From assembly GCA_041649135.1 (NCBI GenBank), contig JBAZNQ010000001.1, positions 99,037-163,036 on the forward strand: a stretch of 64,000 bases of DNA, read 5' to 3'. This document shows positions 14,553-59,686 of the stretch, in pieces. The notes beneath the pieces are model-generated. The model was not told where the DNA came from, did not search any database, and worked only from the letters and a program-made list of their open reading frames with translations. The translations under genes were made by a program, and so were the position numbers. Positions within the stretch are counted from its first letter, which is position 1; each line of letters begins with the position of its first letter. The stretch is from Patescibacteria group bacterium (GTDB taxonomy: Bacteria; Patescibacteriota; Kazan-3B-28).

Positions 14553-15224
14553 ATGAAACTCCTGGCCGCCATTAATGTTGTCCTGGAATTCCTCGGGGCC
14601 TTGATTGTCGCCAAACAAGACAAGGAAGGTCACTTTGCCCGTGTGAGAGAGTTGCTCACACAGCTCAAGACCCTCGACGAGGAAGCTCTTGGTAGACTGC
14701 TTCAACGGATGAACTATGTCCGTGTGATCCTGACCCAGAACACGCTCCTCCCTACCGCAGAAGCCATACAAAGGTTTATTCTGAGCCAAGTCATCCAGAT
14801 CATTGATTGCGATACCGAACTATTTATTCCTGATTACTGGGAGGTGGTCGAGCACCAGAAGGGTGGCAAGCTGGAGTGGAACCCAGAGAAGATTCAGCTC
14901 TATCTCTCGAACGCACAAAATGACAACAGTGACATCGAGGGCCACGAGCTCTGCCGTGAGCTGAAAGGCAAGCGGGTCTTAAACGATTGCGTCCTTGATT
15001 GGCTCATTGCCCATCCCGAGTTCATCCCCGAAGAATGGAAGGGTAAATATATCTTCTTCTGGGGTACCATCTATCGCGACTCGAGTGGCTACTTACGCGT
15101 GCGGTTCCTCTACTGGGACGGTGGCAGGTGGGGCAGGTGGGGCAGGTGGCGCTGGAACTATCGCCGGCTCGACGACAAATTGCACTCCAACGAACCTGCG
15201 GCTGTCCTCGCAGACGCAGCTTAG
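14553..15224 (+). CDS. Hypothetical protein in a higher-GC islet, C-terminal GRW repeats
   Basis: About 52% GC against about 44% flanks. SD aggagactggg before the ATG. C-terminus GGRWGRWGRWRW encoded by 3 perfect ggcaggtgg units. Confidence 0.45.
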   Translation: MKLLAAINVVLEFLGALIVAKQDKEGHFARVRELLTQLKTLDEEALGRLLQRMNYVRVILTQNTLLPTAEAIQRFILSQVIQIIDCDTELFIPDYWEVVEHQKGGKLEWNPEKIQLYLSNAQNDNSDIEGHELCRELKGKRVLNDCVLDWLIAHPEFIPEEWKGKYIFFWGTIYRDSSGYLRVRFLYWDGGRWGRWGRWRWNYRRLDDKLHSNEPAAVLADAA

Positions 15225-15306: not shown

Positions 15307-15376
15307 TCGTATAATGTTATGGCGGTATACTTTTTACTCGGTCATTCTAGGCGAAGCGAAGAATCTATAATTAACT

Positions 15377-15562
15377 CGTCATTCTGGCCTGCCTGCCGGT
15401 GGGCAGGTAAGTCCAGCCCCGAAGGTGCCCCGTTGGGGTAGGACGCATCCAGAATCTTCCTCTCGTCATTCCCGCGCCACCTTCTGTCATTCCCGCTCCA
15501 CTCTTCGTCATTCCCATTTCTCTCTTCGTCATTCCCGCGAAGGCGGGAATCCAGAAAAGAAC
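15377..15562. repeat. Composite array of MITE-like palindromic repeats (GTCATTC... family)
   Basis: gtcattctgg...ccagaatc unit, then four tandem tcgtcattccc half-sites ending in the full hairpin gtcattcccgcgaaggcgggaatccagaaaagaaca. Confidence 0.8.
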
Positions 15563-15579
15563 ATAAACTTTTAACTCTT

Positions 15580-15620
15580 CACTCTTCACTCTTCACTCTT
15601 CACTCTTCACTCTTCACTGC
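15580..15620. repeat. Tandem heptamer repeat (ctcttca) x6 directly upstream of the next start codon
   Basis: ctcttcactcttcactcttcactcttcactcttcactcttcact. Confidence 0.8.
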
Positions 15621-15627
15621 CCCCATT

Positions 15628-18045
15628 ATGTCTTACCCCGAATTTATTGTTTTAGATATCGAATCCACCGGCGTCGACTCCAAACACGACGACATTATTG
15701 AATTCTCTGCCGTCAAACTCAATGCTGCAGGTGAAATTATCGATCAACTCGATACTCTAGTTTCCACCAAACTTCTGCCACTTCGCCCACTAGTAGTTGC
15801 TCTGACTGGCATTAAAGATGAAGATTTTGAAGGTCAGCCGAATTTGGAAGCAGTCTTACCCAAAATCGAAGCCTTCTGCGGCGATTTGCCGATAGTGGGT
15901 CATAACATCAGTTTTGATGTTGAATTTTTACATGCCAAAGGGTTGAGCTTGAAAGGCGACTTGCTCGATACGTTGGAACTTGCCCAAACAGTTCTTACCA
16001 AACAACCAGCTTATAGTTTGGAAGGTCTCTGCTGGCGGTTCAATTTTCCCCATCAACCGTCTCATCGCGCTATGGCTGATGTTTTGGCTACTGTTGATTT
16101 AATGAAATTCCTAAGCCAGCAAATTGCCGATCTTAAAGCCGGTACGCGCAAAAAGGTTTTGGATACTCTGCCGGAAAAATCTTGGAACTGGCGTTGGCTG
16201 TTTGCAGAATCTTCTTTTGTCATCCCGAGCGAAGAACGTTCGACGTTCGGAGCGAAGAATCTAGGACAAAGTCCGCACATCACTCCCCACACGAGCAGTC
16301 TGATCGGCAGTCTCAATCAGGCTGAACAATTCTTACCAGACATCAAAACCGCTGAAACCGGCAAAATCAATTTTATTGAAACCCATTTTTCAATTGACCA
16401 ACTGTCCCTTGCCCTAGCTCACGCCATTGCCAAAAAACCGGCTGTATTAGTCGTGCCATTCAACGCTTGGCGAGAAATTGATTGGGAAGCAGTCGGCCAA
16501 GCCCATAACCTTAAACTGGCCGTTCGTGATCGCCAAGAATTTTTCTATCAGGCAGATAGTGAACTGGAATTGGCCAAATCTATGCCGTCCATTTCCGCTA
16601 CCGAAGCAAAATTGATCACCAAAGTTATCTTGTGGCGCAACGAATGGGGGAGCGACCCGTCAAAATTGTATCTGGTAAATGATGAGCTCTATCAATGGGA
16701 ACAAAAATTTGCTCCCATTGAAGTAAAAAAATCTCAACTTCCCGAACATGAAAAAGTTGATCTAATTATTGCCACCACCAGTTCCGTATTAGAGTTGGAA
16801 AATTTGGCAAGATACAATATCATCGTGCTTGATCCATTGAGTGTCGAGGAATCAGCGATGCGTATTAAATCTCGCACTCTGTCGTTAAATTACTTTAGCG
16901 CACTAGTTTCAAGTCGTCGGGATTTTGTACATCTCCAGATTCGTCCCAAAGATGTCAAACTGGCAGATTCATTATTCAAAATTCTTAACGATGTTAGTAG
17001 CAAACTTGCGGCTTTGAGCCCCATGTTGGTGGCGTGGTACGCCGCTAATCCGCCCAGCAATGTCTTTGACCGCAATACCGAACTCTCCGGTGTCAACATG
17101 ACTGATGAATTGCGCAGTCAGCTTGATCTGATCATCGAAGACTTATCGCAATATCTTGGTGTTATCATTGATGCTAAATTGCCCAATTCTAAATCACAGA
17201 TCGAACATACTGAAAAATTGATTATTCATTTAAAGGCTCTCGAAACAACGGATCCTAGCTTTAGATATTTCCTCAACGCGATCGAAAATCGATTCTATTT
17301 GGATATTCTTCCCGCTCATCCAGATTTTTCACTACTAGAGCGAATTTTAACAGATAGCAAATCCTGTACCGTGTTAGGCGCTGGTTTGTCCGTTCAGGGC
17401 AGGTTCAATTATTGGCACCAATCATTTGGTGAATTTAATAGTAAAGTGCTCAAAGACGATACCCCATTGGAATTATTGTTAGTGAAAGACTTGCCGGAAG
17501 GTGATGACTATCTGGAAGCGATCGGTAAATTTTCTAGCCAGATGATCGCCAACAATCCCTATTCACTCGTTTTAACTGGTTCCGCTTATGATACCGAAGA
17601 GCTCTTTGATTGGTTGTTGGCTCCCGTTACGGAAGCTGGGATCGCTCTCTCTAGCGCCAACACAACCAAAGCATTGGAGAAATTACCTGACCTAGTTGGC
17701 GCCAATCGGCATCTGGGAATTGTGGCTTACTATTGGTGGCTGGAACGAGCTCGGTTGTATTTACCAAATTTTGATTTGCTCCTGCTCGGCAAAATTCCTT
17801 TCGATCCCAACAGCCGACCGCAAGCCAAAGTGATGCAAGGGGATAATAACGGTTTCGATAGCTATACGATCCCGCGCACCACAATGAAACTCAAGGAGGT
17901 GCTTCATACTGCTTCTTTAATGAATTTCAAAACTCTAGTTTTAGCCGACAGTCGATTGGTGAAAAAAGATTATGGCGAACGGATCATCGGCTCCCTCGAA
18001 GGCTTCGTCGTCATTCCCCAAACTAGCAAAGAACTTCTCGGATAA
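15628..18045 (+). CDS. DnaQ-like 3'-5' exonuclease domain fused to a large DinG-like C-terminal region (helicase motifs not recognisable)
   Basis: N-terminal DEDDh motifs: VLDIESTGVD (Exo I), GHNISFDVEFL (Exo II), HRAMADV (Exo III). No Walker A seen in the 600-aa C-terminal part. Contains an in-frame MITE-like insert at 16219-16264. Confidence 0.55.
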   Translation: MSYPEFIVLDIESTGVDSKHDDIIEFSAVKLNAAGEIIDQLDTLVSTKLLPLRPLVVALTGIKDEDFEGQPNLEAVLPKIEAFCGDLPIVGHNISFDVEFLHAKGLSLKGDLLDTLELAQTVLTKQPAYSLEGLCWRFNFPHQPSHRAMADVLATVDLMKFLSQQIADLKAGTRKKVLDTLPEKSWNWRWLFAESSFVIPSEERSTFGAKNLGQSPHITPHTSSLIGSLNQAEQFLPDIKTAETGKINFIETHFSIDQLSLALAHAIAKKPAVLVVPFNAWREIDWEAVGQAHNLKLAVRDRQEFFYQADSELELAKSMPSISATEAKLITKVILWRNEWGSDPSKLYLVNDELYQWEQKFAPIEVKKSQLPEHEKVDLIIATTSSVLELENLARYNIIVLDPLSVEESAMRIKSRTLSLNYFSALVSSRRDFVHLQIRPKDVKLADSLFKILNDVSSKLAALSPMLVAWYAANPPSNVFDRNTELSGVNMTDELRSQLDLIIEDLSQYLGVIIDAKLPNSKSQIEHTEKLIIHLKALETTDPSFRYFLNAIENRFYLDILPAHPDFSLLERILTDSKSCTVLGAGLSVQGRFNYWHQSFGEFNSKVLKDDTPLELLLVKDLPEGDDYLEAIGKFSSQMIANNPYSLVLTGSAYDTEELFDWLLAPVTEAGIALSSANTTKALEKLPDLVGANRHLGIVAYYWWLERARLYLPNFDLLLLGKIPFDPNSRPQAKVMQGDNNGFDSYTIPRTTMKLKEVLHTASLMNFKTLVLADSRLVKKDYGERIIGSLEGFVVIPQTSKELLG

Positions 18046-19494: not shown

Positions 19495-19696
19495 AGTGTG
19501 AACGGGCAGACGCCAAATGCCGCTGACGGTTAAACTATCAGCGGCATTTTTATACCCCAAACCGTTTTTTTGTCATCCTCGGGCTTGACCCGGGGATCCA
19601 GACAAAAACAACAAAAAAGCCCATTTTCAGAAGATTTTTTACTCTCTAAAATCACCTATAAACAGCCAAAAATCGGCTCTGGGAGCAGAAAAAGTG

Positions 19697-19976: not shown

Positions 19977-20202
19977 TCGCTCCCTGTCATTGCGAGGAGC
20001 GAGAGGGGAATGAGCGACGAAGCAACCTCATCATTTGTCGCAGGAATAGTGGAGAGGAGAGAGTGTTGTTCGGAAGCCGGCTACTAAATAATTATTTTTT
20101 GGCCCCTTGGTCTTCCGAGCTAACTCATCTCCACCATTCCCTCGATAAGCTGATTGGAAACAGTTAGTGAATCGGGAAGCAAATTGAAAAGGGAGGTGGC
20201 GT

Positions 20203-23499: not shown

Positions 23500-23751
23500 A
23501 CACACCTGTAACTTTCAGCACAAGGCCCGCCGCAAGGCGGGCCTTTCACTTGTCCAAACGCCCATGGTCATACATAAATAATTTCGCCATTAGATGAACG
23601 ACCGTCCAGTATATTGCGAACATTTTAACCTCTATATGTCAAGTGACCATTCCTCCATTCCCCATTGGTTAGATTGGTGTAATCGGAAAAATTGATTAGA
23701 TTTGTCCCCATCCTCTAGATACTAGATGCTAAATGCTAGATACTAGTAAGT

Positions 23752-24114
23752 ATGGACAACAGCTATTTACCGGGGATAGGAATTGCGACTGGGATGACAC
23801 TAGCGGCGTGGTTGTTAGTGTTATTTTATTTTGATCCAACCACTTCTGGCGTTCCCGGTATCACTTTATTTTTTATCAGTCTAGCGGCTACTTTAATAGG
23901 TATATTGATTTTAATTTTCAATTATCTCCGCTATCGTTTTGCCAAAACGCCCGCCTCATTTGGTGTTACCATCAGGCAGGCTGTCTTGTTAGGGCTGGCC
24001 GTCTCGGGTATCCTACTATTGTTGGCTCTGGACAAGCTAAATTGGTGGAACGGGGTCGCCATCGTAGTGGCTGGTATAGTTATTGAATCCTATGCGCTGA
24101 TCAAACCGGAATAA
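23752..24114 (+). CDS. Small membrane protein (3 TM), hypothetical
   Basis: 120 aa, hydrophobic; preceded by ctagata/ctagatg tandem repeats. Confidence 0.45.
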   Translation: MDNSYLPGIGIATGMTLAAWLLVLFYFDPTTSGVPGITLFFISLAATLIGILILIFNYLRYRFAKTPASFGVTIRQAVLLGLAVSGILLLLALDKLNWWNGVAIVVAGIVIESYALIKPE

Positions 24115-24164: not shown

Positions 24165-24252
24165 GTCATTCTGGTAAGCGAAGCGCATCCAGAATCGTAT
24201 AAAAAATTAAATAAGATTCTGGTCCCTGGCCGAGCAGGCAAGCCAGAATGAC
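24165..24252. repeat. MITE-like palindromic element (gtcattctgg ... gccagaatgac variant)
   Basis: gtcattctggtaagcgaagcgcatccagaatcgtat...aagattctggtccctggccgagcaggcaagccagaatgac. Confidence 0.75.
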
Positions 24253-25242: not shown

Positions 25243-25263
25243 ACTGTCACTTCTTGCTTTCTC

Positions 25264-25507
25264 TGTCATTCCCGCTCCACCTTTCGTTGTTCCCACCTCG
25301 CTCTTCGTCATTCCCGCGAAGGCGGGAATCCAGAAAAGAAAAAAGAACAACCCACAAAATGTCTGCTTATGTCTACATTCTTGCCAGCAATAAAAATGGC
25401 ATCGAGCATGGAAAATAAGAATCATTGAAGAGCAGAACCCGCAATGGAAAGATTTATTTCAAGAAATTTTAATTTAATGTCTGGATTCCCGCCTACGCGG
25501 GAATGAC
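25264..25507. mobile_element. Palindromic element carrying an internally deleted GIY-YIG gene remnant (degenerate copy of the 39.4-kb element)
   Basis: Left arm tgtcattcccgc...gtcattcccgcgaaggcgggaatccagaaaag and right arm ctggattcccgcctacgcgggaatgac. Between them, 25359-25477 encodes MSAYVYILASNKNG fused to ...QNPQWKDLFQEILI*. This is the N- and C-termini of the GIY-YIG protein, joined at an AAAAATGG microhomology. Confidence 0.75.
25359..25477 (+). pseudogene. GIY-YIG nuclease gene remnant (internal deletion)
   Basis: The first 14 codons and last about 20 codons are colinear with the CDS at 39515-39802; the middle about 170 nt is missing. Confidence 0.7.
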
Positions 25508-25512
25508 GAGTA

Positions 25513-27852: not shown

Positions 27853-28473
27853 CTAGTCGCTAGGAAAGTACAAGTCCAACTGCGCCCAAACGCAGTCGCT
27901 GTCCCGAGCAACTAGTGACCAACCATAGTAGAGTTGCAGGTCAGCCTTGGTGCTGAAATGAAAGGTAATGGCCGGCCCCAAATTGCTACTGACTCGACTG
28001 TCGTCGGCAAACTCACCGGAGAACACACCGACAACGGACAAGGTTGCATCTTCTCCGGCCAACGCATCCCATTGTGCTTGCTCATAAAAAGAGGTCTTTT
28101 TGCCGTTGGCGAACCTGATGCTTGTCATGGCCCATCCAAAACGACCATCAACCTTTCCTTGGAGTTTAAGCCCAGTATCCTCGCCATCGCGGAACATCAG
28201 AATGACCCGGGGTTGGACTTTAAAGTCTTCCCCCCAGCTCACTTGTGGCAAACGCCAACCGATATCAACCCCGTCCATGTCGGGGCTCCAGTCGAATTGC
28301 CAAGACGCTTGACCATCTGGCACCACCAGTCGGAGGTTGTGACTTGTTCCTCCGTTCTCTGGCGAGATGTAAGTCAAGTCCTCCACGACAACCGTACCAG
28401 CCATCACCGGGCTGGCAATCGCCATACACAGCACTACTACCGCAACTGCGGCAGCCACTAACCATCGTGGCAT
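27853..28473 (-). CDS. Secreted hypothetical protein (higher GC, about 56%)
   Basis: SD aaggagg 7 nt before ATG (MPRWLVAAAVAVVVLCMAIASPVMAG signal peptide). The ORF extends to 28548, but the internal start is favoured. Confidence 0.5.
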   Translation of the reverse strand: MPRWLVAAAVAVVVLCMAIASPVMAGTVVVEDLTYISPENGGTSHNLRLVVPDGQASWQFDWSPDMDGVDIGWRLPQVSWGEDFKVQPRVILMFRDGEDTGLKLQGKVDGRFGWAMTSIRFANGKKTSFYEQAQWDALAGEDATLSVVGVFSGEFADDSRVSSNLGPAITFHFSTKADLQLYYGWSLVARDSDCVWAQLDLYFPSD

Positions 28474-28678
28474 TTCGCATTCCTCCTTCTTGTACTTCCT
28501 AGTGGTCAAAGGACATCCCCCAACCACCGTCGCATCGTACTCTGACAATCAGCTTCCAGTCAAGCTTTTTGGCTTCTCCCAAAACTTTGCTTTTAACGCC
28601 AAGCTAAGAGAATAATCCTAAAATCTAAATTTGAAAAACCCTCGGTCGATTTCGACCGAGGGTTTCATTGTGGTCGGC

Positions 28679-28774: not shown

Positions 28775-29020
28775 AACGTAACCTCCTCCTTTTTACCACC
28801 GTAGTTAGGAAACCTATTCCAACCACTTGCCATTCTATCTCAACCCCGCTCCCAGTCAATTTTCCACTGTCATTGCGAGGAGCCCAGAGGTGTCGAGGGG
28901 CGACGCGGCAATCTACTTTTTGTCATATCCAAAATCTTGCTCCATAGGATAAAATCAGGTACAATTGAGGTAGCAATTTCGCCCCTAAGGCGACTTTCCG
29001 TATGGTCTTAATTACCTGTC

Positions 29021-29110
29021 ATTCCCGCGGAGGCGGGAATCCAGAAAAGAACAGAAAAATGTTTTTGTTTCTGTCTGGATCCCCAATCAAGTTGGGGATG
29101 ACGACTAAGA
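29021..29110. repeat. Full-length two-hairpin MITE-like element upstream of gyrB
   Basis: gtcattcccgcggaggcgggaatccagaaaagaacagaaaaatg tttttgtttctgtctggatcccc-aatcaagtt-ggggatgac; the right half is an imperfect reverse complement of the left. Confidence 0.8.
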
Positions 29111-29125
29111 AAAGTTTTATTACCA

Positions 29126-31174
29126 ATGCCTGACGACAATAAAAAAACTAGCGGTTCCTACGGTGCAAAAGATATTCAGGTCCTAGAAGGGCTTGAGCCA
29201 GTTCGCAAACGCCCCGGTATGTATATCGGCTCCACCTCGGTGGAGGGTCTTCACCATATGATTTGGGAGGTGGTCGATAACTCTATTGATGAAGCCATGG
29301 CCGGTCACGGCACGATGGTGGAAGTTATTATTCACAAAGACGGCAAGGTAACCGTGATTGATGATGGTCGCGGCATCCCAACCGAGATACATCCTCAAAC
29401 CAAGAAGTCCACCCTTGAAACTGTTTTAACCACTCTTCATGCCGGTGGTAAGTTCGGCGGCGAAGGTTACAAAGTTTCCGGTGGTTTACATGGTGTGGGC
29501 GTGTCAGTTGTCAACGCCCTGTCTGATTTTATGCGGGTAGAAGTAACCCGTGATGGCAAAACTCATGCCCAAGAATATTCCAAAGGTATCGCCACCAGTT
29601 CAGCCAAAGTGATCAACAAAGATGTCAAAGGACATGGTACAAAAATAACTTTTCATGCCGACAAAACCATCTTTGATGACAACGAAGGGTACGAATGGAA
29701 AACCGTTCTCGAACATTTGAAACAGCAAGCTTATCTCACCAAAGGCGTTTTTGTAAAAATTCACGATGAACGTTCGGGCGAATCGCAGGAATTCAAATTT
29801 GAAGGCGGAGTGCAGTCATATGTCGAAGATTTAGATAAAAACAAGACTCCGCTCTTCACTCCACCATTTTATATCGACAAAGAACGCAACAATGTCCAAG
29901 TTGAATTGTCGATTCAATACACGGAAGATTTTAATGAAACGCTCAAAGCTTTTGCTAATAATATTTACAATCCCGAAGGCGGAACTCACGTAATTGGTTT
30001 TCGTACCGCGTTAACTCGCATTTTAAATGCTTACGCTAAAAAAACGGGGATTATCAAAGAAGCGAAAGATGCTTTATCGGGCGACGATGTTCGCGAAGGT
30101 CTGACCGCCGTTATTTCTGTCAAACTGGCGAATCCCCAATTTGAAGGTCAGACTAAAGCCAAGTTGGGTAATGCCAATGTTCGGACTGCCGTCGATGCGG
30201 TAATGTCCGATTATTTCAATAACTACCTTGAGGAGCATCCTTCAGAAGCTCGTCGGATTATCAGTAAGACCATGTTGGCTGCCAGAGCCCGCCTAGCGGC
30301 GCGTCAGGCGCGTGAAACGGTACTGCGCAAAGGTATCCTCGAAGGTATGACCCTGCCGGGGAAACTAGCCGACTGTTCCAACCGAGATCCATCCAAATCA
30401 GAGATCTTCATTGTCGAGGGTGAGTCTGCCGGTGGTTCCGCCAAAAGTGGACGTGATCGTCAGTTCCAAGCTATTTTGCCTTTACGTGGGAAAATTTTGA
30501 ACGTAGAAAAAGCTCGGCTGGATCGCATGTTATCTTCCGAGGAAATTAAAGTTTTGATCATTGCCCTTGGTGCCGGTATTGCTGAACAATTCAATGTTGA
30601 TAAAATTCGTTACCATCGCGTAATTATTATGACTGATGCCGATGTTGATGGTGCGCACATTAGAACTTTGCTTTTGACTTTCTTCTACCGCTACATGCGC
30701 GCCATTATCGACCGCGGCTATCTCTATATTGGCCAGCCGCCACTGTATCAGCTTAAGTCTGGCAAAGATGTGCGCTGGGTTTATTCTGACGAAGAGAAGG
30801 ATAAAGTAATGAAAGACATGCAGGAAGCCGCTGCCAAGAAGAAGGAAGGCAAGAAAGCTAAGATGGAAACCGATGACACCGCCATCGTCATTCCCGCGGA
30901 GGCGGGAATCCAGACCGAAACAGAAACCATCGCCGAAGATTTGTCATCTACTAAAGGTATTGCGATCCAACGTTACAAAGGTCTTGGAGAAATGAATCCA
31001 AGCCAACTTTGGGAAACCACTATGGATCCTGCTAATCGGATTATTCACCGTGTTACTGTTGATGATGCCGAAATCGCTGATGACATCTTTTCCACCCTCA
31101 TGGGAGACGACGTTGCCCCCCGCAAGAAATTCATCGAAGATAACGCCCAATTCGTCCAGAATCTGGACGTGTAA
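29126..31174 (+). CDS. gyrB: DNA gyrase subunit B, carrying an in-frame repeat-derived insertion
   Basis: GHKL ATPase motifs (EVVDNSIDEA, GLHGVGVSVVNALS), TOPRIM (EGESAGGSAK, IMTDADVDGAHI), C-terminal QRYKGLGEMN. Codons VIPAEAGIQ at 30886-30913 are encoded by gtcattcccgcggaggcgggaatccag. Confidence 0.9.
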   Translation: MPDDNKKTSGSYGAKDIQVLEGLEPVRKRPGMYIGSTSVEGLHHMIWEVVDNSIDEAMAGHGTMVEVIIHKDGKVTVIDDGRGIPTEIHPQTKKSTLETVLTTLHAGGKFGGEGYKVSGGLHGVGVSVVNALSDFMRVEVTRDGKTHAQEYSKGIATSSAKVINKDVKGHGTKITFHADKTIFDDNEGYEWKTVLEHLKQQAYLTKGVFVKIHDERSGESQEFKFEGGVQSYVEDLDKNKTPLFTPPFYIDKERNNVQVELSIQYTEDFNETLKAFANNIYNPEGGTHVIGFRTALTRILNAYAKKTGIIKEAKDALSGDDVREGLTAVISVKLANPQFEGQTKAKLGNANVRTAVDAVMSDYFNNYLEEHPSEARRIISKTMLAARARLAARQARETVLRKGILEGMTLPGKLADCSNRDPSKSEIFIVEGESAGGSAKSGRDRQFQAILPLRGKILNVEKARLDRMLSSEEIKVLIIALGAGIAEQFNVDKIRYHRVIIMTDADVDGAHIRTLLLTFFYRYMRAIIDRGYLYIGQPPLYQLKSGKDVRWVYSDEEKDKVMKDMQEAAAKKKEGKKAKMETDDTAIVIPAEAGIQTETETIAEDLSSTKGIAIQRYKGLGEMNPSQLWETTMDPANRIIHRVTVDDAEIADDIFSTLMGDDVAPRKKFIEDNAQFVQNLDV

Positions 31175-31245: not shown

Positions 31246-31618
31246 CAATTAGGAAATGCGATCGCATGATATTTTAGTAAAGATAAGTATGCCGCTTCAG
31301 AAGACGGCCGTCTTCCTAATCGGCAAATTTATCGTACGATTCCTTGGCCGCGACCGCAGGCAGGCTGGATGCGGTCACCACGGCGACCTTACCAGAATGA
31401 CGAGCAGGCGGTAGATTCTGGAGCCTCCTATACTAAGCTGACCTGCTCCTTGCTCTGCCCTAGGTAAGAAAACAAGTTCGCTACTTCCCCTCCTACTTTC
31501 TCTAGTCTAGCCACTGAACGCTAGATGCTAGATGCTGACTTGTAGTACTATGTTAGGGTAGCGCTTGGGGGAGCGCGGAGGTTCTTGGAGGTTTTTTATG
31601 TTGGGTTAATGGGAGGTT

Positions 31619-32770
31619 ATGACTAGTTCACTTGCTTGGATTACAGTTGATCTGAAAGCTATTGATTTTAACATCAAACAATTTCGTCGCCTCATAAAAC
31701 CGGAAACAAAAATTATGGCAGTTGTTAAGTCCAATGCTTACGGGCACGGGCTTTTTGAAGTTGCGCGACAGGCGATTAAATCCGGGGCCGATTATCTTGG
31801 TGTAATTACCGATCAAGAAGCTATGATTCTACGCAAACATGGGATTATCCAACCGATTTTAGTGCTAGGCGTCGTACCCAAAGACAACATTGCTATGTTA
31901 ATTCGCAATAAGATTGCTTTAAGCGTTTATAACGAAGAATCTTATCGCACCATTGCCAGAATTGCCGATATTATTAATCGCAAAGCGATTGTTCACATCA
32001 AGATTGATACCGGTACTAATCGACTTGGTTTTACTAATCTTGATAACGCTCTGCGGATTATTAAATTGATTGTAGCTAAGCGTCGCCAATTTGATTTAGA
32101 GGGTTTATATTCGCATCTCGCTAGTGTGGAAGAATTAAACCAAAGCTACACCAATGATCAGATACTAATGTTTGAGCGGCTATTGGCACGGGTAGACAAA
32201 CTCGGTATTAAAATTCCGATTATTTCTTTAGCCGCTTCTGCCGCCGCTATTATGCTTCCGGAGAGTCGGTTTAATTGTGTTCGTATTGGTATCGCACTCT
32301 ATGGGCTATGGCCTTCCCGAGGAGTGGAGCTGTGGTGTAAACGGAGCAAAAAGACCCGCAATTTTCATCTGAAACCAGCTCTCACCTACAAAACTAAACT
32401 TGTCCACATCAAACGGGTACGGGCCGGCAGTTTTATCGGTTATGGTTGTAATTATCAAGCCAAATCTGCCATGACCATCGGCGTCATCCCAGTTGGCTAT
32501 TTTGAAGGTTTGCCCAGACATTTGAGCAATATGGGTTTTGCTCTGCTTAAGGGCGCAGTCGTGCCATTTGTCGGACGGGTATGTATGAACATGACGATTT
32601 TAGACATCAGTCGTCGTCCCCGTGCCAAAGTTGGTGATGAAGTTGTTTTGATCGGTCGGAGTCAGACTAAAGAAATTACCACTACTGATATTGCTGATTG
32701 GGCCAGCACTATTAATTATGAAATTGTCTCGCGCATGCCAGAACATATTGAAAGAGTATATAAAAATTAA
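31619..32770 (+). CDS. alr: Alanine racemase
   Basis: PLP-binding MAVVKSNAYGHG; TIM-barrel and C-terminal beta domain conserved. Confidence 0.85.
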   Translation: MTSSLAWITVDLKAIDFNIKQFRRLIKPETKIMAVVKSNAYGHGLFEVARQAIKSGADYLGVITDQEAMILRKHGIIQPILVLGVVPKDNIAMLIRNKIALSVYNEESYRTIARIADIINRKAIVHIKIDTGTNRLGFTNLDNALRIIKLIVAKRRQFDLEGLYSHLASVEELNQSYTNDQILMFERLLARVDKLGIKIPIISLAASAAAIMLPESRFNCVRIGIALYGLWPSRGVELWCKRSKKTRNFHLKPALTYKTKLVHIKRVRAGSFIGYGCNYQAKSAMTIGVIPVGYFEGLPRHLSNMGFALLKGAVVPFVGRVCMNMTILDISRRPRAKVGDEVVLIGRSQTKEITTTDIADWASTINYEIVSRMPEHIERVYKN

Positions 32771-32878
32771 TAGTTAACAGTTAATAGTGAACAGTTAAGG
32801 AAAAATTATTTAATAAATTGTCGCTTGCGACACCAAAACTATTCACCCTTCACTTTTAACTTTTCACTGACTTTCGCT

Positions 32879-34889: not shown

Positions 34890-35084
34890 AAGAAGAAAAT
34901 TAGTTTCTAGTATCTAGGATTTAGTATCTAGAAAGATGGGGACGCACCTCACCTAGTCGCTAGATGCTAGCCCCTAGATACTGATAGTACTCCGCCAGAT
35001 TACCGTATCTGGTGAAATAGGTCAAGGGGTAATAAAAAAGCTTCCCGCAAGGAAAGCTTTTGAGGAGATCTTACGCCGAGAACC

Positions 35085-39439: not shown

Positions 39440-39833
39440 TTCGTCATTCCCGCTCCACTCTTCGTCATTCCCGCGTAGGCGGGAATCCAGAAAGAAAAAA
39501 TAACAATCTATGAAATGTCTGCTTATGTCTACATCTTAGCCAATGGCAAAAATGGGACCTTATACACCGGCGTGACAGTACCATTGGTCAAGAGGGTGTA
39601 CGAACACAAGAGCAAATTTATTTCTGGATTCGCTGAACAATACAACGCAACCGACCTAGTCTATTACGAAATATTTGACGATATAGAAAACGCTATTCTT
39701 CGCGAAAAACATATCAAAAAATGGCATCGAGAATGGAAAATTAAATTGATCGAGAAAAATAATCCACAATGGAAAGATCTATACCAAGAAATTTTAGTTT
39801 AATGTCTGGATTCCCGCCTTTGCGGGAATGACG
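39440..39833. mobile_element. Full-length palindromic element carrying an intact GIY-YIG nuclease gene; candidate autonomous parent of the MITE family
   Basis: Left arm ttcgtcattcccgctccactcttcgtcattcccgcgtaggcgggaatccagaaag; right arm tctggattcccgcctttgcgggaatgac; 288-nt ORF in between. Confidence 0.7.
39515..39802 (+). CDS. GIY-YIG nuclease superfamily protein (YhbQ/UPF0213-like, 95 aa)
   Basis: MSAYVYILANGKNGTLYTGVTVPLVKRVYEHK (GIY-N10-YTG motif with a conserved R and E); a remnant paralog at 25359-25477. Confidence 0.75.
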   Translation: MSAYVYILANGKNGTLYTGVTVPLVKRVYEHKSKFISGFAEQYNATDLVYYEIFDDIENAILREKHIKKWHREWKIKLIEKNNPQWKDLYQEILV

Positions 39834-44582: not shown

Positions 44583-44716
44583 GAGAAAAATCTCATCAAT
44601 CTAACCAAAAAGGAAGTGGAGAGGAGGATGGAAATTCGACAATTCGCCAGAATGACGAGCTTTTTATTTTTATCTTTGCCCCTAGCTACTAGCTACTAGC
44701 TACTAGATACTAGATA

Positions 44717-47430: not shown

Positions 47431-47504
47431 TATTTATTTGTCTAGTCATCCGCCAGCTAATGAATCCTTTCTCTCTTCTGCCATCCCACGTCCTTCCTTT
47501 TTGT

Positions 47505-47605
47505 CATCCTGAACTTGATTCAGGATCCAGCCAGAAACAACAAACAAAACTCTTTTTCTTTTCTTGTCTAGATTCCGGGTCAAGCCCGGAATGACAAAAT
47601 AAATA
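47505..47605. repeat. Full-length MITE-like element (gtcatcctgaac...ccggaatgac variant)
   Basis: ttgtcatcctgaacttgattcaggatccagccagaaacaac...cttgtctagattccgggtcaagcccggaatgacaaa. Confidence 0.75.
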
Positions 47606-47658: not shown

Positions 47659-48816
47659 ATGTCTAATCCAAAAATTGCCATCGTTCACGACTTCCTCCAA
47701 TCCTTCGGTGGTGCCGAAAGAGTTACTTTGGCGATCAGCGATCTTTATCCCGATGCGCCGATCTATTCTTTGACTTACGATATCAAGCTCAATCCTTGGT
47801 TCGGTAAAAGAAAAATCCTCACGTCCTATTTGCAAAAATGGAGCTGGGTTCCGGCTAAATTTTTAATCCCGTTTTATGCTCAAGCGATTGAGAGTTTTGA
47901 TTTTAATGATTTTGACGTAGTTATTTCTAGTTCTCATTCATTCGCGAAAAATATTCTTACCAATCCGGACACAATTCACATTTCCTATATTCATTCGCCG
48001 ATGCGTTACGTTTGGGATGCGTGGCACTCTTATTTAGCTGGTCAGCGAGTTAGTCGTTTGAATGGGATTTTAGGAGTAGGGTTAGTCCGCAATACTGTTG
48101 TCAATATTCTGCACCATTTGCGACTTTGGGATCGGCTGGGTGCATCGCGGGTAGACCAATTTGTGGCTAATTCCCACTACGTGGCGGATCGTATCCGCAA
48201 ATTTTATCGTCGGGAATCAATTGTTATTTACCCACCAGTTGATACTGATAAAATTCAAATTTCTCACGAGCATAAAAATTACTTCATCGCCATTGCTCGC
48301 TTAAGCCAGTACAAGCGACTAGATTTAGTCGTCCAAGCTTGTAATGAATTAAATCTGCCATTAATAGTTATCGGTACTGGTGAAATGGAAGCCGAATTAA
48401 AAAAACTAGCTGGGCCGACAGTCACTATTACTGGCTGGATCAGCGACGAACAAAAGATTAAATATATTGAAAGTGCTCGCGCCCTAATTTTCCCTGCCGA
48501 AGAAGATTTTGGAATTGTACCGGTGGAAATTCAAGCGGCTGGTAAACCAGTGATAGCCTTTGGCAAAGGCGGCTGTTTGGAAACTGTAATTGATGGCGAA
48601 ACCGGCATCTTTTTCCCTGAACAGACGGTAGAAAGTCTTAAATTAGCTATCCAAAAATTTATTCAAATCGAGTCGACTTTCGATCCAGCTACCATTTCCC
48701 AGCACGCTCAACAATTTTCTCGTCAACGTTTCCAAACTGAACTTAGAAAACTAGTTGAAGAAAAATTAGCAGAGCATAGTTTTCGTCATCCTCTGGCTTG
48801 CGTCAGTCCTCCGTAG
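47659..48816 (+). CDS. Glycosyltransferase family 4 (GT-B)
   Basis: EEDFGIVPVEIQAAGKPVIAFGKGGCLETV. Confidence 0.8.
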   Translation: MSNPKIAIVHDFLQSFGGAERVTLAISDLYPDAPIYSLTYDIKLNPWFGKRKILTSYLQKWSWVPAKFLIPFYAQAIESFDFNDFDVVISSSHSFAKNILTNPDTIHISYIHSPMRYVWDAWHSYLAGQRVSRLNGILGVGLVRNTVVNILHHLRLWDRLGASRVDQFVANSHYVADRIRKFYRRESIVIYPPVDTDKIQISHEHKNYFIAIARLSQYKRLDLVVQACNELNLPLIVIGTGEMEAELKKLAGPTVTITGWISDEQKIKYIESARALIFPAEEDFGIVPVEIQAAGKPVIAFGKGGCLETVIDGETGIFFPEQTVESLKLAIQKFIQIESTFDPATISQHAQQFSRQRFQTELRKLVEEKLAEHSFRHPLACVSPP

Positions 48817-48867
48817 CTCAACGAGCGAAGGATGGAACCAGAGGATCCAGTCCCACCCTTTGTTATT

Positions 48868-49040
48868 CTCGGACTTGATCCGAGAATCCAGAAAAGAACA
48901 GAAAAAATGTTTTTGTTTCTGGCTGGATTCCCCAATCAAGTTGGGAAATGACAACAGAAACTTAAGAATAACCAAAAGTCCACCGTCATTCTGGTAAGGT
49001 CGACGCAGCGACCGCATCCAGAATCGTATAAGTGACGATG
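48868..49040. repeat. Two adjacent MITE-like elements
   Basis: ctcggacttgatccgagaatccagaaaagaacagaaaaaatgtttttgtttctggctggattcccc...gggaaatgac followed by gtcattctggtaaggtcgacgcagcgaccgcatccagaatcgtat. Confidence 0.75.
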
Positions 49041-49094
49041 TACACCATTCCTCATTTTCTCTGGCTTGTGTCAGTCATGTGTAGCTTGTCAGAG

Positions 49095-49260
49095 CGCAAT
49101 GGTCATCCTCGAGCTGAGTGCCGTAGGCAACTCGACGTCGGGGACCCAGACAGAAACAGCCAACAAAAACTTTTTCTTTTTTGTCTGGATTCCCGCCTAC
49201 CTGCCCGAAGTGCTACACCGTTGCAGGCGGGCGCGGGAATGACGAAGAGGAGGGCTCATA
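49095..49260. repeat. MITE-like element (gtcatcctcgag...gggaatgac variant)
   Basis: cgtcatcctcgagctgagtgccgtaggcaactcgacgtcggggacccagacagaaacag...ttgtctggattcccgcctacc...gcgggaatgacg. Confidence 0.75.
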
Positions 49261-49277
49261 ATGACAAAATATTAACT

Positions 49278-50916: not shown

Positions 50917-52233
50917 ATGAGAGAGAAAGTTAGAGTTAGATTTGCTCCAAGCCCGACTGGACCATTACATATTGGGAGTGCGCGTACCGCGCTCTTCAAT
51001 TATCTGTACGCTAAAAAATTTAACGGTGTTTTTGTCTTACGTTTTGAAGACACGGATACCGCTCGCAGTCAAAAAGTCTTTGAAGAGAACATTTTAGGGG
51101 GTTTAGCGTGGTTGGGGTTTGTGACTGATGAAACTTATCATCAAAGCGAACGCGAAAAAGTGTATCGCTCGTATTTACAAAAATTGACCGATAGGGGACT
51201 TACTTATGAACATGATGGGGGAGTCTATTTCAAATTACCAACCGACAATCGAAAGGTCATTGTTGATGACATTATTCGCGGCCAAGTGGAATTTGAAAGT
51301 AAAGATTTTGACGATCTAGTTTTATTTAAAAAGGATGGCTCACCGACCTTTCATTTTGCCAATGTTGTAGATGATATTGAAATGAAAATTACTCACGTTA
51401 TTCGTGGCGAAGATCATTTGAGCAACACTCCAAAACATATTTTGCTTTATGAGGCACTAGATGCTACACCACCCCAATTTGCCCACATCCCGCTGATCCT
51501 AAATCCAGATCGCACCAAGATGAGTAAACGTGCCGGTAACGTCAATTTGGACGACTACAAACAAGCCGGATATCTACCCGAAGCCTTAATTAACTTTCTT
51601 GTTCAACTTGGCTGGTCTGACCCCTCTTCTTCTGTCATTCCCGCGAAGGCGGGAATCTATTCCCTAGACGAACTAATCAAACTTTTTGATTTGTCTCGCG
51701 TCCAAAAAGCCGGAGCAGTTTTCGACATAAAACATCTCAATCACCTGAACCACTATTACCTGATGCAAAAACCTCTAGACGAATACACCGCACTAGCTAC
51801 TTCTCGTCTCTCGCAACTCGCAACTCGCAACTCGCGACTTCTTCGTTCCGCCCTGCGTCTGGTTCAAGACCGCGCCCAAACTCTGGGTGAAATCCCCTCT
51901 TTAATTGAATTTTTCTTCACCCAACCGGAATATGACTCTCCCCTGCTGGTTTTCAAAAAATCCAGTCCCGAACAAACTATGACAGGGTTGAAAACCGCTT
52001 TGAAGGTTTTAGAAGCCATCAGCGAGACAGAGTGGGCCCAACCAAAGTTACAACAAATCTTAGACGAGGCGACAGCAGCCGAATCACTTCAGCCGGGGGA
52101 TTTGTTCTGGCCGGTAAGAGTAGCTTTATCTGGTCGCGATGCCAGCCCCAGCCCGACTGAATTGTTAGACGCCCTTGGAAAAACCGAATCTATCGCAAGG
52201 ATCAAAACCGCTATTAATAAGTTGGGCAATTAA
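50917..52233 (+). CDS. gltX: Glutamate--tRNA ligase, carrying an in-frame repeat-derived insertion
   Basis: HIGH motif PTGPLHIGSAR, KMSKR. Codons SVIPAKAGIY at 51644-51667 are encoded by gtcattcccgcgaaggcgggaatc. Confidence 0.9.
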   Translation: MREKVRVRFAPSPTGPLHIGSARTALFNYLYAKKFNGVFVLRFEDTDTARSQKVFEENILGGLAWLGFVTDETYHQSEREKVYRSYLQKLTDRGLTYEHDGGVYFKLPTDNRKVIVDDIIRGQVEFESKDFDDLVLFKKDGSPTFHFANVVDDIEMKITHVIRGEDHLSNTPKHILLYEALDATPPQFAHIPLILNPDRTKMSKRAGNVNLDDYKQAGYLPEALINFLVQLGWSDPSSSVIPAKAGIYSLDELIKLFDLSRVQKAGAVFDIKHLNHLNHYYLMQKPLDEYTALATSRLSQLATRNSRLLRSALRLVQDRAQTLGEIPSLIEFFFTQPEYDSPLLVFKKSSPEQTMTGLKTALKVLEAISETEWAQPKLQQILDEATAAESLQPGDLFWPVRVALSGRDASPSPTELLDALGKTESIARIKTAINKLGN

Positions 52234-52242
52234 TTCTGTCGT

Positions 52243-52300
52243 CATCCTCGAGTCGAAAGCGTAGCGCTTCGACATCGGGGACCCAGACAGAAACAAAATA
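52243..52300. repeat. MITE-like element
   Basis: gtcatcctcgagtcgaaagcgtagcgcttcgacatcggggacccagacagaaacaaaa. Confidence 0.75.
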
Positions 52301-53469: not shown

Positions 53470-53612
53470 CGTCATCCTCGAGCCGAGTGCCGTAGGCAAC
53501 TCGACATCGGGGATCCAGAAAAAACAAAACATTTGGTTTCCCGACGAACAGAGGGACCACCCATTTCCCTTTCTCGTCATTCTGGCTTGTCCAGAATCTT
53601 ATAAAGCGATAC
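53470..53612. repeat. Two MITE-like elements (one partial)
   Basis: gtcatcctcgagccgagtgccgtaggcaactcgacatcggggatccagaaaaaacaaaac ... cgtcattctggcttgtccagaatcttat. Confidence 0.7.
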
Positions 53613-59399: not shown

Positions 59400-59510
59400 G
59401 TCATTCTGGCAAGCCCCCTCCGTCATTCTGGTAATTCTGCCGTACGGCAGAAGCGACCAGAATCGTAGAAAATATATTTATAAGATTCTGGCCAAGCCAG
59501 AATGACACAA
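59400..59510. repeat. MITE-like element array (gtcattctgg ... ccagaatgac)
   Basis: gtcattctggcaagccccctccgtcattctggtaattctgccgtacggcagaagcgaccagaatcgtag...aagattctggccaagccagaatgac. Confidence 0.75.
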
Positions 59511-59686
59511 ACAAAAAACAGCGCCGCAGGCACCACCAAAACTTTTTCATCGCAGATCCTTCGACCTGTCCGCCATAGCTTTAGCGACGGAGGAAGCCTT
59601 GGCGGAGGAGGACCATTCACTTTTAACTTTCTGCTATCTCAAATTATTCACTGTTCACTATTCACTTTTAACTTTTCATTATCTCT

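Follow-up and report, generated by a model that had tools for sequence, protein, structure and literature searches.

Oriented GTCAT hairpins, a putative Ssn-type nuclease gene and turnover at orthologous sites in Patescibacteria

Hairpin units in the window

The window, meaning the whole 64-kb stretch of Patescibacteria DNA analysed here, holds 32 curated hairpin units, plus half-sites, between 15.3 and 59.5 kb, beside or within genes such as pheS, pheT, gyrB, glyA and gltX. Each unit is a DNA hairpin with a fixed orientation, made up of a GTCAT tag on the 5' side, a stem of 7-9 bp beginning with AT, a loop and a tail. GTCAT is the near-invariant part of the tag (one head reads GTTAT); in the printed sequences, the preceding letter gives CGTC in part of the units and TGTC or GGTC in the others. 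The loop is usually 4-5 nt long and in some units is enlarged by nested hairpins, and an A-rich tract comes after the tail. Conservation is best in the NTS subtype (the NTS/dRS3 type), which has a 4-nt loop; type C has a 5-nt loop (CTTGA), and the tail of both is TCCAG(A). Type B combines a 7-bp ATTCTGG...CCAGAAT stem with a TCGTA or TCTTA tail. Units occur in four forms: solo, as inverted dimers with their tags outward (six gene-less ones in the window), as a 371-bp NTS-ssn-NTS unit, and as a decayed copy of that unit. In window coordinates, the features are as follows.

15341..15372, + strand: degenerate solo unit GTCATTCTAGGCGAAGCGAAGAATC, type E-like (sequence reading, loose scan)
15378..15456, + strand: solo type B with a 61-nt loop containing nested hairpins (strict scan; fold -19 kcal/mol, z -3.0)
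15463..15527, + strand: array of three half-sites of 21 nt, each made of GTCATTCCCGC and some 10 nt of pyrimidine-rich flanking sequence, with a full NTS immediately 3' (TRF period 21, 3.7 copies)
15527..15554, + strand: solo NTS CGTCATTCCCGCGAAGGCGGGAATCCAG, exactly the published NTS consensus (fold -8.9 kcal/mol, z -4.2)
16212..16276, + strand: type-E unit inside a DinG-like gene (sequence, protein alignment)
19571..19601, + strand: solo type C with a 9-bp stem, CTTGA loop and CCAG tail, fitting the SRM pattern given below
19986..20030, + strand: degenerate type D (GTCATTGCGAGGAGC...), stable hairpin lost (fold z +1.4)
24165..24252, unstranded: inverted type-B dimer, tags outward; the pheS start codon follows after 9 nt (fold -20 kcal/mol, z -5.7)
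25262..25305, + strand: pair of 21-nt half-sites on the 5' side of the remnant's left NTS
25306..25508, unstranded: NTS-ssn-NTS remnant between pheS and pheT
28870..28914, + strand: type D (GTCATTGCGAGGAGC...GCGGCAATC), weak hairpin (fold z 0.1)
29018..29102, unstranded: inverted dimer in the gyrB leader, left NTS and right type C, with a central inverted repeat CCAGA...TCTGG (fold -23 kcal/mol, z -5.3)
30886..30913, + strand: NTS inside gyrB
31350..31401, - strand: degenerate type B, the sole solo unit oriented against its neighbouring genes
39441..39462, + strand: single 21-nt half-site on the 5' side of the ssn unit's left NTS (TRF period 21)
39463..39833, unstranded: complete 371-bp NTS-ssn-NTS unit, flanked by glyA and tRNA-Leu
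39515..39802, + strand: ssn gene (Pfam GIY-YIG)
44637..44656, - strand: partial type B, 3' of a minus-strand PEGA-domain gene
47503..47595, unstranded: inverted dimer of two type-C units with 8-bp stems and CTTGA loops (fold z -4.9)
48785..48847, + strand: long-loop type C overlapping the 3' end and stop codon of a glycosyltransferase gene (47659-48816)
48862..48952, unstranded: inverted type-C dimer, left head GTTAT, central spacer the same as in 29018-29102 (fold z -4.5)
48985..49025, + strand: solo type B with a 23-nt loop (strict scan)
49102..49243, unstranded: inverted dimer, left long-loop type C and right long-loop NTS (fold -29 kcal/mol, z -2.8)
51633..51660, + strand: NTS inside gltX
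52240..52283, + strand: solo long-loop type C, 6 nt past the gltX stop
53471..53515, + strand: solo long-loop type C, 4 nt past the stop of a glycosyltransferase gene
53576..53598, + strand: solo short-loop type B upstream of tRNA-Gln
59400..59421, + strand: type-B half-site, GTCATTCTGG with its flank, 22 nt upstream of a full unit
59422..59506, unstranded: inverted type-B dimer (fold -23.8 kcal/mol, z -8.3)

The composites span 85-142 bp with inverted ends and, as single-stranded DNA, fold far better than shuffled sequences (z -2.8 to -8.3). A preliminary description of this DNA had reported a two-hairpin composite, which is present in that form at 29018-29102, 47503-47595, 48862-48952 and 49102-49243; a second composite type with ATTCTGG stems lies at 24165-24252 and 59422-59506. 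All 22 positions at which copies had been listed do contain a GTCAT-tagged hairpin unit or fragment. The half-site arrays consist of left halves only and are repeated outside each NTS. Nested insertion into loops was considered as the source of the 21-nt arrays and rejected on these grounds: only left halves occur, and they lie on the outer side. The solo NTS at 15527..15554 resembles a left end of the ssn unit from which the gene is missing (79 nt at 91% identity to 25262-25340).

That the repeats form a genuine family of several variants, mostly intergenic, is borne out by the counts. A strict structural scan (GTCA[TC], a stem of at least 7 bp from the A, then C) returned 29 units, compared with 1.3 +/- 1.3 in 40 dinucleotide-preserving shuffles. 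The dRS3 core ATTCCC-N8-GGGAAT occurs eight times in the window against none expected (100 such shuffles), and GTCATTC 37 times against 9.6 expected from dinucleotide-preserving shuffles. The 28-nt oriented NTS consensus of Neisseria, CGTCATTCCCGCGMAVGCGGGAATCYRG, has six copies with at most one mismatch, compared with none in 50 shuffles. The degenerate pattern published for Ssn-related motifs (SRMs; HGTCWYN(0-2)YYVSBRHN(0-5)WNVSBRGN(0-2)RNCYNB; PMC11893778) has eight matches in the window where 0.22 are expected; it fits 7 of the 32 curated units and leaves out types B, D and E as well as units with long loops.

Intergenic DNA makes up 20% of the window and yet holds 28 of the 32 units (P ~7e-16). 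Even so, only 14 of the 41 intergenic regions longer than 40 bp contain one, so the earlier statement that almost every intergenic region does so went too far. The companion claim that units often end a few nucleotides before a start codon applies to pheS (9 nt) and pheT (5 nt), with gyrB at 23 nt; others lie 50-250 nt away.

About 12% of the units lie inside genes, compared with the 2% reported for N. meningitidis (PMC11893778), and units can persist in frame inside essential genes. In-frame copies are found in gyrB, gltX and the DinG-like gene. The last reads as ..SFVIPSEERSTFGAKNLGQ.. and makes the product 11 residues longer than its orthologue in the related genome L007. The gyrB NTS (30886..30913) reads as VIPAEAGIQ in a variable linker, as judged from protein and DNA alignments; relative L092 has it at the same site with a loop longer by 30 nt, L100 keeps a hairpin there by means of a different stem, and L006, L093, L097 and L098 lack it. 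The gltX NTS (51633..51660) reads as VIPAKAGIY, in a region 6 residues longer than in the closest solved GluRS (alignment to PDB 8jpv).

A putative nuclease gene between inverted hairpins

The 371-bp unit encloses an ORF (39515-39802) for a 95-aa single-domain GIY-YIG protein (Pfam match over residues 3-76, E 3.3e-15; no other domain), flanked by inverted NTS copies (left, 39463-39490, + strand; right, 39806-39833, - strand). The same inverted pair surrounds the gene in relatives L006 and L007/L092. NTS and Ssn-related motifs were described by Chenal et al. (Nat Commun 2025; PMC11893778), who showed that Ssn cuts beside NTS hairpins and who raised an IS-like role for NTS-ssn-NTS only as speculation. 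The window reproduces that system in its 28-nt oriented NTS with CGTCAT tag and CCAG tail, in the NTS-ssn-NTS layout, and in units that are clustered and mostly intergenic.

The protein itself resembles SsnA of N. meningitidis (Ssn nuclease family, cd10448) in having a single domain, in its length (95 versus 94 aa) and in residues Y6, Y17 and E64, a likeness judged from published size, residues and architecture rather than by direct alignment. Mutating Y6, Y17 or E64 in SsnA abolished cleavage (PMC11893778); in the window protein these three, together with R27, H31 and N83, are invariant across 23 aligned homologues. Homologues number 2,558 at 60-83% identity and are spread across phyla, with the closest ones in species-representative genomes belonging to many different bacterial lineages. 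Among the 80 closest genomic homologues, 45 have an SRM-pattern match within 200 bp of the gene and 19 have SRMs on both sides in inverted orientation, mostly the same NTS; Neisseria is absent from these 80 loci listed in the genome scan. Searches of NCBIfam and of PDB sequences returned no match to the protein. From sequence and context we infer that it is an Ssn-type nuclease cognate to the NTS, with cutting activity predicted.

The preliminary description had treated the agreement with dRS3 as formal and had added that homology was not implied. That caution now appears excessive: the copies fit the full oriented 28-nt NTS, including tag and tail, and the window also encodes the putative cognate nuclease between inverted NTS, as in the published system (PMC11893778). 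dRS3 is CGTC-1 of Neisseria, one of four families (CGTC-1 to CGTC-4) of CGTC-tagged REPs defined by Di Nocera et al. (BMC Genomics 2013; PMC3733652), whose list of five phyla includes no candidate phylum, and who concluded that the repeats have no dedicated enzyme. The NTS and type-C units share with these REPs the tag, stems of 8-9 bp opening with AT, loops of 4-5 nt and a CCA tail, and also the predominance of dimers, the presence of copies inside replication and repair genes and the lack of an adjacent transposase. Unlike CGTC REPs as surveyed in 2013, however, a repeat unit in the window encloses an enzyme gene, and type B (7-bp stem, TCGTA/TCTTA tail) and the enlarged loops fall outside the four consensus families, and the SRM pattern likewise does not cover types B, D and E or units with long loops. 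Patescibacteria appear to be a new host group for the family, one not named in the main text of Chenal et al. (PMC11893778).

Two further groups of repeats invite comparison. Neisserial intergenic mosaic elements (dRS3 plus RS units) likewise bracket short intergenic repeats with dRS3-type hairpins, often in clusters, but belong to a different phylum, and the window's spacers are A-rich (CCAGAAAAGAAC...); the likeness noted here is one of layout. Rickettsia palindromic elements, of which RPE-4 and RPE-6 have been equated with CGTC families (PMC3733652), resemble the in-gene units in being palindromic units inserted in essential genes and translated in frame. They measure about 100-150 bp, whereas the in-gene copies here are single hairpins that add 6-11 residues.

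The decayed copy between pheS and pheT (25306-25508, 203 bp) retains both NTS intact and has lost about 168 bp of the ssn ORF between two AAAAATGG direct repeats. HMM matches in it cover Ssn residues 2-16 and 70-95 only, and BLAST against the intact unit gives two blocks that overlap by the 8-nt repeat. This remnant shows that internal deletions of the ssn unit occur, and we considered whether the 85-93-bp dimers arose from the ssn unit in the same manner; joining two extended solo units by their tails would account for them equally well, because solo units have the same A-rich tail.

A separate Ssn paralogue for each hairpin type found no support in this genome. A six-frame HMM scan of the window detected the intact gene and the remnant only, and a second Ssn, associated with type-E hairpins in relative L091, returned 60 proteins when used as a query, none of them on this genome's 420- or 521-kb contigs. 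The only ssn in the window is thus of NTS type, which leaves types B, C, D and E without a matching gene in the window; therefore most units may be orphans.

Units appear, vanish and swap at orthologous sites

Units and dimers appear, vanish and swap at orthologous sites in related genomes, and the preliminary proposal to look for presence/absence polymorphism among strains proved productive at four sites. The junction between pheS and pheT takes several forms. It is empty in L100, L097 and L098, and an intact NTS-ssn-NTS fills it in L092/L007 and L006. L091 has the second Ssn type there, accompanied by hairpins of its own; L093 and L099 have dimers that lack a gene; and the window has the ssn remnant. 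At the site between a 120-aa ORF (23752-24114) and pheS, different dimers lie within conserved flanks (related genomes, alignment A4). In the gyrB leader, at the site of 29018-29102, the dimer of L092 and L169 is of type E, and L100 has no dimer (alignment A5). Between alr and pyrG, the window has no unit, and L100 and L092 have the site filled. The breakpoints of replacement at orthologous sites are the GTCAT/ATGAC tags.

Hairpin loops change even between near-identical strains. Over the 32 kb compared (two samples), the window and strain L005 differ by 11 SNPs and one indel, and this sole indel adds 32 bp, in L005, to the loop of the ssn unit's left NTS. The NTS loop in the dimer at 49102..49243 is closely similar to the insert.

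Most of the longer related loci hold 3-5.5 units per 10 kb, compared with 0.2 per 10 kb in distant PheS-bearing genomes (826 kb), a pattern of lineage specificity.

Origin and spread of the units

We consider it highly probable that the repeats are Ssn-related motifs, that is, CGTC-tagged REPs with an Ssn partner, in an explanation that as a whole includes turnover driven or permitted by Ssn. By extension from four homologues studied elsewhere, the hairpin would fold when the DNA is single-stranded, Ssn would bind the hairpin and the C after it and would cut within that strand, a few nucleotides before the tag, and the reverse strand, double-stranded DNA and RNA would stay uncut. Such cutting at outward-facing tags may drive or permit insertion and exchange. 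By analogy with REP/RAYT and IS200/IS605 systems, NTS-ssn-NTS would act as the autonomous element and the dimers without a gene as its non-autonomous counterpart. To our knowledge, strand transfer by Ssn has never been shown. Recombination between copies would explain a swap at a fixed site equally well.

A bolder version, which we regard as possible but rather doubtful, is that in this Patescibacteria lineage NTS-ssn-NTS and the gene-less dimers are currently active cassettes, with Ssn cutting single-stranded DNA just outside the outward-facing tags and the cassettes being inserted, excised or exchanged at preferred sites. Hairpin loops would then form a second hot spot, gaining or losing nested hairpins of about 30 nt. 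Exchange at preferred landing sites would explain the different dimers between identical flanks in close relatives. If true, this would amount to transposition or homing by a single-domain GIY-YIG protein, distinct from all known transposase classes, and the pheS/pheT junction, found variously empty, filled, decayed or replaced, would lend itself naturally to testing the idea.

Another reading holds that the units are host regulatory RNA hairpins (terminators, mRNA stabilisers or 5'-UTR structures) under selection and unrelated to the nuclease. Several units do lie in leaders or just past stop codons; 15 of the 16 solo units share the orientation of the adjacent gene and therefore would be transcribed as hairpins; and L100 preserves the in-gene gyrB hairpin through a different stem. 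Yet none of the 32 units coincides with a terminator- or promoter-like consensus site (scans over 40 kb), and separate canonical terminators follow gyrB, pyrG and other genes. Rfam at gathering thresholds reported only two tRNAs, and therefore the repeats are not covered by any described RNA family. Non-homologous dimers, or none, at the same site in close relatives are unexpected for a conserved element, and the link to ssn across phyla would be left unexplained. We therefore think this reading unlikely as the main account, and a secondary, co-opted RNA role may exist.

The label MITE-like, given to the repeats at the outset, fits them loosely, in their inverted ends and insertion polymorphism. 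In full it implies more, namely non-autonomous deletion derivatives of a DDE-type IS, with a transposase acting in trans and target-site duplications. The size of the composites, their inverted ends, their mostly intergenic placement, their presence/absence polymorphism among relatives and the existence of a 203-bp internally deleted derivative of a gene-bearing unit would all suit such an origin. However, no target-site duplication is definable at the compared filled and empty sites, where the filled junctions are too short or too diverged, and none of the roughly 26 window ORFs scanned with Pfam has a transposase domain. The only gene enclosed by the ends encodes the 95-aa GIY-YIG protein, and the ends, unlike plain terminal inverted repeats, are self-folding hairpin recognition sites that are also found solo. 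Classical MITEs are thus a very improbable explanation.

Mobilisation of REP/REPIN elements by a RAYT, a tyrosine transposase of the IS200/IS605 type, would follow the same logic: short oriented hairpins, inverted doublets that are the likely mobile unit, clustering, single-stranded hairpin recognition and an enzyme gene between its own hairpins (PMC3733652, PMC11893778). The particulars differ. The tag is (C)GTCAT rather than GTAG, the enclosed gene encodes a GIY-YIG nuclease rather than an HUH tyrosine transposase, the window ORFs scanned contain no Y1 transposase domain, and Di Nocera et al. never found CGTC repeats beside RAYT genes (PMC3733652). We give this alternative hardly any credence.

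Finally, a local duplication array confined to this region, as opposed to a dispersed family, is highly improbable, although the repeats do not come cleanly through the refuting condition set in the preliminary description, confinement to one region: the confinement itself is real in the roughly 82 kb of genome sampled, with all 32 units in one 44-kb stretch and none in the other 38 kb (window 1-15.3 and 59.6-64 kb, and 9.4 and 8.9 kb beyond its ends), but the units are interspersed among unrelated genes, in 14 separate intergenic regions and 4 genes whose flanks are unrelated and nowhere duplicated, relatives hold other variants at orthologous and non-orthologous sites, and in dozens of unrelated genomes ssn lies beside this very NTS.

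The means by which CGTC/NTS hairpins spread has been an open question ever since their description. The window and its relatives supply comparative evidence for gain, loss and exchange, at defined sites, of the gene-bearing unit as well as of dimers without a gene. The genomes are small, and in them the elements enter essential genes in frame. The loci also offer concrete sequences on which mobilisation by Ssn could be tested, among them the empty and filled junctions, the loop that differs by 32 bp between strains, and the second Ssn type together with the hairpin that belongs to it.

For annotation, the repeats explain spurious small ORFs in candidate-phyla genomes, with peptides such as IPAFAGMT, SFPRRRES and VIPAKAGIQ. 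Four antisense ORFs in the window had already been suspected as artefacts of this kind, and indeed they read through the repeats as ...WIPAFAGMTK..., ...MTKSGAGMT... and ...VIPGLTRNLD....

Hairpin units and the ssn gene

The preliminary description had reported GTCAT hairpin repeats at 15377-15562 and at other positions in the window; these are real and were correctly seen, with counts far above those in shuffled sequence. ATTCCC-N8-GGGAAT occurs 8 times (0 in shuffles), GTCATTC 37 times (9.6), and a structural definition (GTCA followed by T or C, a stem of 7 bp or more from the A on, then C) 29 times (1.3 +/- 1.3). Curation gave 32 units, plus about 8 half-sites, all within 15.3-59.5 kb; 28 units are intergenic, against an intergenic share of 20% of the window (P ~7e-16). 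That almost every intergenic region carries a repeat was too strong a claim (14 of 41 contain a unit), and four small antisense ORFs are artefacts, as proposed, their translations running through repeats. Folded as single-stranded DNA, NTS units and 6/6 inverted dimers were much more stable than shuffles, and two GTCATTGCGAGGAGC copies no better than shuffles. No Rfam family covers the units.

Each unit reads, 5' to 3', GTCAT tag, stem starting AT, loop, complementary arm, tail (TCCAG(A) in NTS and type C, TCGTA or TCTTA in type B) and often an A-rich tract, with some loops enlarged to 14-61 nt through nested GC-rich hairpins. By our own reading of the unit table, 15 of 16 solo units share the adjacent gene's orientation. 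Some units adjoin 21-nt-period arrays (TRF) of left half-sites; in such arrays, tag, left arm and ~10 nt of flank repeat every 18-22 nt immediately upstream of a full hairpin.

Unit forms, inverted dimers and half-site arrays
NTS type (best conserved, 28 nt): stem ATTCCCGC, 4-nt loop
Type B: stem ATTCTGG
Type C: 8-9-bp stems, CTTGA loop
Type D: ATTGCGAGGAGC, degenerate
Type E: ATTCTGAGCGAAG-like
Inverted dimers, tags outward: 24165-24252, 29018-29102, 47503-47595, 48862-48952, 49102-49243, 59422-59506
Half-site arrays: 15463-15527, 25262-25305, 39441-39462, 59400-59421; also in loci L033, L037, L038, L043, L068

Half-site arrays recur in unrelated phyla, where a half-site lies 17-23 nt upstream in 17/243 perfect sites, and spacings near 42 and 63 nt form additional peaks; the available sections of PMC11893778 and PMC3733652 contain no mention of them.

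The family itself is already known, having been described in 2013 (PMC3733652) and tied to its enzyme in 2025 (PMC11893778). Di Nocera et al. (2013, PMC3733652) present the same hairpins as CGTC-tagged REPs without a dedicated transposase, with 8-9-bp stems from AT, 4-5-nt loops and a CCA tail, mostly dimers, some within genes; CGTC-1 of Neisseria is dRS3. In Chenal et al. (2025, PMC11893778), NTS is defined as CGTCATTCCCGCGMAVGCGGGAATCYRG, encompassing dRS3, with Ssn-related motifs (SRMs) as a broader class; SsnA, a ~94-aa GIY-YIG protein, and three homologues bind the hairpin only as single-stranded DNA and cut a few nt upstream of it, on one strand only, and the NTS-ssnA-NTS arrangement is called IS-like. 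The window holds 6 matches to the published NTS (0 expected) and 8 to the SRM pattern (0.22 expected), together with two ssn units.

39463-39833: two inverted NTS around ORF 39515-39802
25306-25508: remnant between pheS and pheT, both NTS intact, ~168 bp of the ORF missing between two AAAAATGG repeats

The ORF product (95 aa) has a single GIY-YIG domain (Pfam E 3.3e-15) and carries Y6, Y17 and E64; these residues, mutated in the work on the N. meningitidis enzyme, are invariant across 23 homologues. Judged by motif matches and catalytic residues, repeats and predicted enzyme fit the published NTS/SRM and Ssn definitions. The databases contain 2558 homologues of this putative Ssn, 60-83% identical, and an identical entry is named as a Patescibacteria-group MAG. 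Among the closest 80 ssn loci in species-representative genomes, from many different bacterial lineages, a published-pattern SRM lies within 200 bp of the gene in 45, and on both sides, inverted, in 19, mostly as the same NTS as the window's. New here are the host group, additional hairpin variants and, from comparison of related genomes, evidence for turnover.

Turnover at orthologous sites

The window is identical to a 420-kb ENA metagenome contig. Related genomes, found via the Ssn protein and via PheS, share the gene order ybbR, DinG-like, pheS, pheT, gyrB, alr, pyrG, and the presence/absence differences that the preliminary description had suggested looking for were seen at pheS-pheT, the gyrB leader and alr-pyrG. 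Six states occur at the first junction.

States of the pheS-pheT junction (L-numbers, related loci)
Empty, 1-10 nt between genes: L100, L097, L098
Intact NTS-ssn-NTS: L092/L007, L006
Different Ssn inside type-E hairpins: L091 1755-2042
Gene-less inverted dimers: L093/L096, L099
Unrelated small ORF: L169 384-545
NTS-ssn-NTS remnant: window

The L091 protein, 95 aa long and sharing 37% identity with the Ssn of the window (hhalign probability 99.1%), represents a second Ssn subfamily. Type-E hairpins (GTCATTCTGAGTGAAGCGAAGAATC / GTCATCCTGAGCGCCAGCGAAGGATC) lie on either side of its gene, and the protein has only 60 database relatives, of which the named ones are Patescibacteria lineages; one, 82% identical, is named for candidate division Kazan. 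L169, the closest PheS relative (90%), has at this junction a membrane-peptide-like ORF of ~50 aa and no hairpin unit.

At the site between a 120-aa ORF (23752-24114) and pheS, the flanks are conserved but the dimer is a different one in each of the window, L100, L092 and L091, homology stopping at the GTCAT and ATGAC tags (alignment A4). The gyrB leader holds an NTS/type-C dimer in the window, a type-E dimer in L092 and L169 and none in L100 (alignment A5), the dimers lying just downstream of a partly conserved promoter-like box and hairpin. L100 and L092 have different dimers in the alr-pyrG interval, which is empty in the window. Most of the longer related loci have 3-5.5 units per 10 kb; across 826 kb of distant PheS-bearing genomes the density is that of the shuffle background, 0.2 per 10 kb.

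At the gyrB leader (window 28935-28995, L092 11665-11740, L169 2815-2895, L100 11240-11300) the box is present in all four, as TTGTTC-N17-TATAAT in L092, L169 and L100 and CTTGCTC...TACAAT in the window; a GC hairpin 3' of it, CGCCCC-N-AAGGCG, is found in the window, L092 and L169 and not in L100.

Two other assemblies of the same population were compared with the window over 32 kb; 11 substitutions and a single indel separate them from it. This indel, also the sole length difference in 32 kb between the near-identical populations ENA ERZ27247363 and JGI 3300037067, is a 32-bp segment, CCCGCCTGCAACGACGTAGCATCTCGGGCAGG, in the left NTS loop (NTS 39463-39490) of the ssn unit (window 39475, L005 9929-9960). 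It closely resembles the long loop within the NTS 49188-49243.

Units thus appear, vanish and replace one another, and the breakpoints fall at the tags. As shown for homologues elsewhere, Ssn would recognise the folded hairpin and following C in single-stranded DNA and nick a few nt to the 5' side of the tag; cuts outside both outward-facing tags of a dimer or ssn unit would underlie insertion or exchange. The replacements may alternatively reflect recombination between copies. A purely regulatory hairpin is contradicted by at least one test, and none of the 32 units coincides with a site in our terminator-like and promoter-like scan, which found ordinary terminators elsewhere; the units may have a secondary RNA-level role. 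Classical MITE and REP/RAYT explanations likewise each conflict with one or more tests.

Units within genes, clustering and neighbouring features

In gyrB, an NTS (30886-30913) is translated as VIPAEAGIQ in a variable linker; L092 has 30 more nt in the loop and L100 a different stem, ACCCCGCCAT/ATGGCGGGGT, all in frame, and the unit is absent from the more distant relatives compared. An NTS in gltX is translated as VIPAKAGIY, giving 6 residues more than a solved GluRS; a type-E unit adds 11 residues to the DinG-like protein relative to L007; and a fourth unit overlaps a glycosyltransferase gene's stop codon. The ORF 49032-50150 has a mechanically listed GTG start at 49032 that crosses three hairpin units, and its length differs by caller (357 aa, ENA; at least 290 aa, JGI, cut by the locus end); translation probably begins downstream of 49243.

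All 32 units lie in one 44-kb stretch. They are absent from 1-15.3 kb and 59.6-64 kb, from 9.4 kb past the right end (L174 11189-20549) and from 8.9 kb past the left end (L176 1-8853); with none in the 38 kb around, the family is therefore strongly clustered at the scale sampled, as likewise reported for Neisseria. Local duplication, also contradicted by at least one test, would make this cluster a duplication array, which it is not: units are interspersed among unrelated genes.

ORFs 14553-15224 (223 aa) and 27853-28548 (-) (231 aa), which have no Pfam matches, occupy places with short gaps in relatives (ybbR-DinG 8 nt in L100; pheT-gyrB ~130-205 nt in L100, L092 and L169), and each is followed in the window by a hairpin-unit cluster. 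Perfect or near-perfect 7-nt tandem repeats are also present, many in intergenic DNA.

7-nt tandem repeats
Intergenic: 15574-15618, 23715-23746, 32767-32798, 34901-34931, 44682-44748, 59647-59678
Inside gltX: 51810-51839

ACTCTTC x6.4 ends 9 nt 5' of the DinG-like start codon, CTAGATA x9.3 lies at the 3' end of a PEGA-domain gene, and a TTCAC-rich motif (repeat family D2) upstream of several genes overlaps some of the 7-nt tracts.
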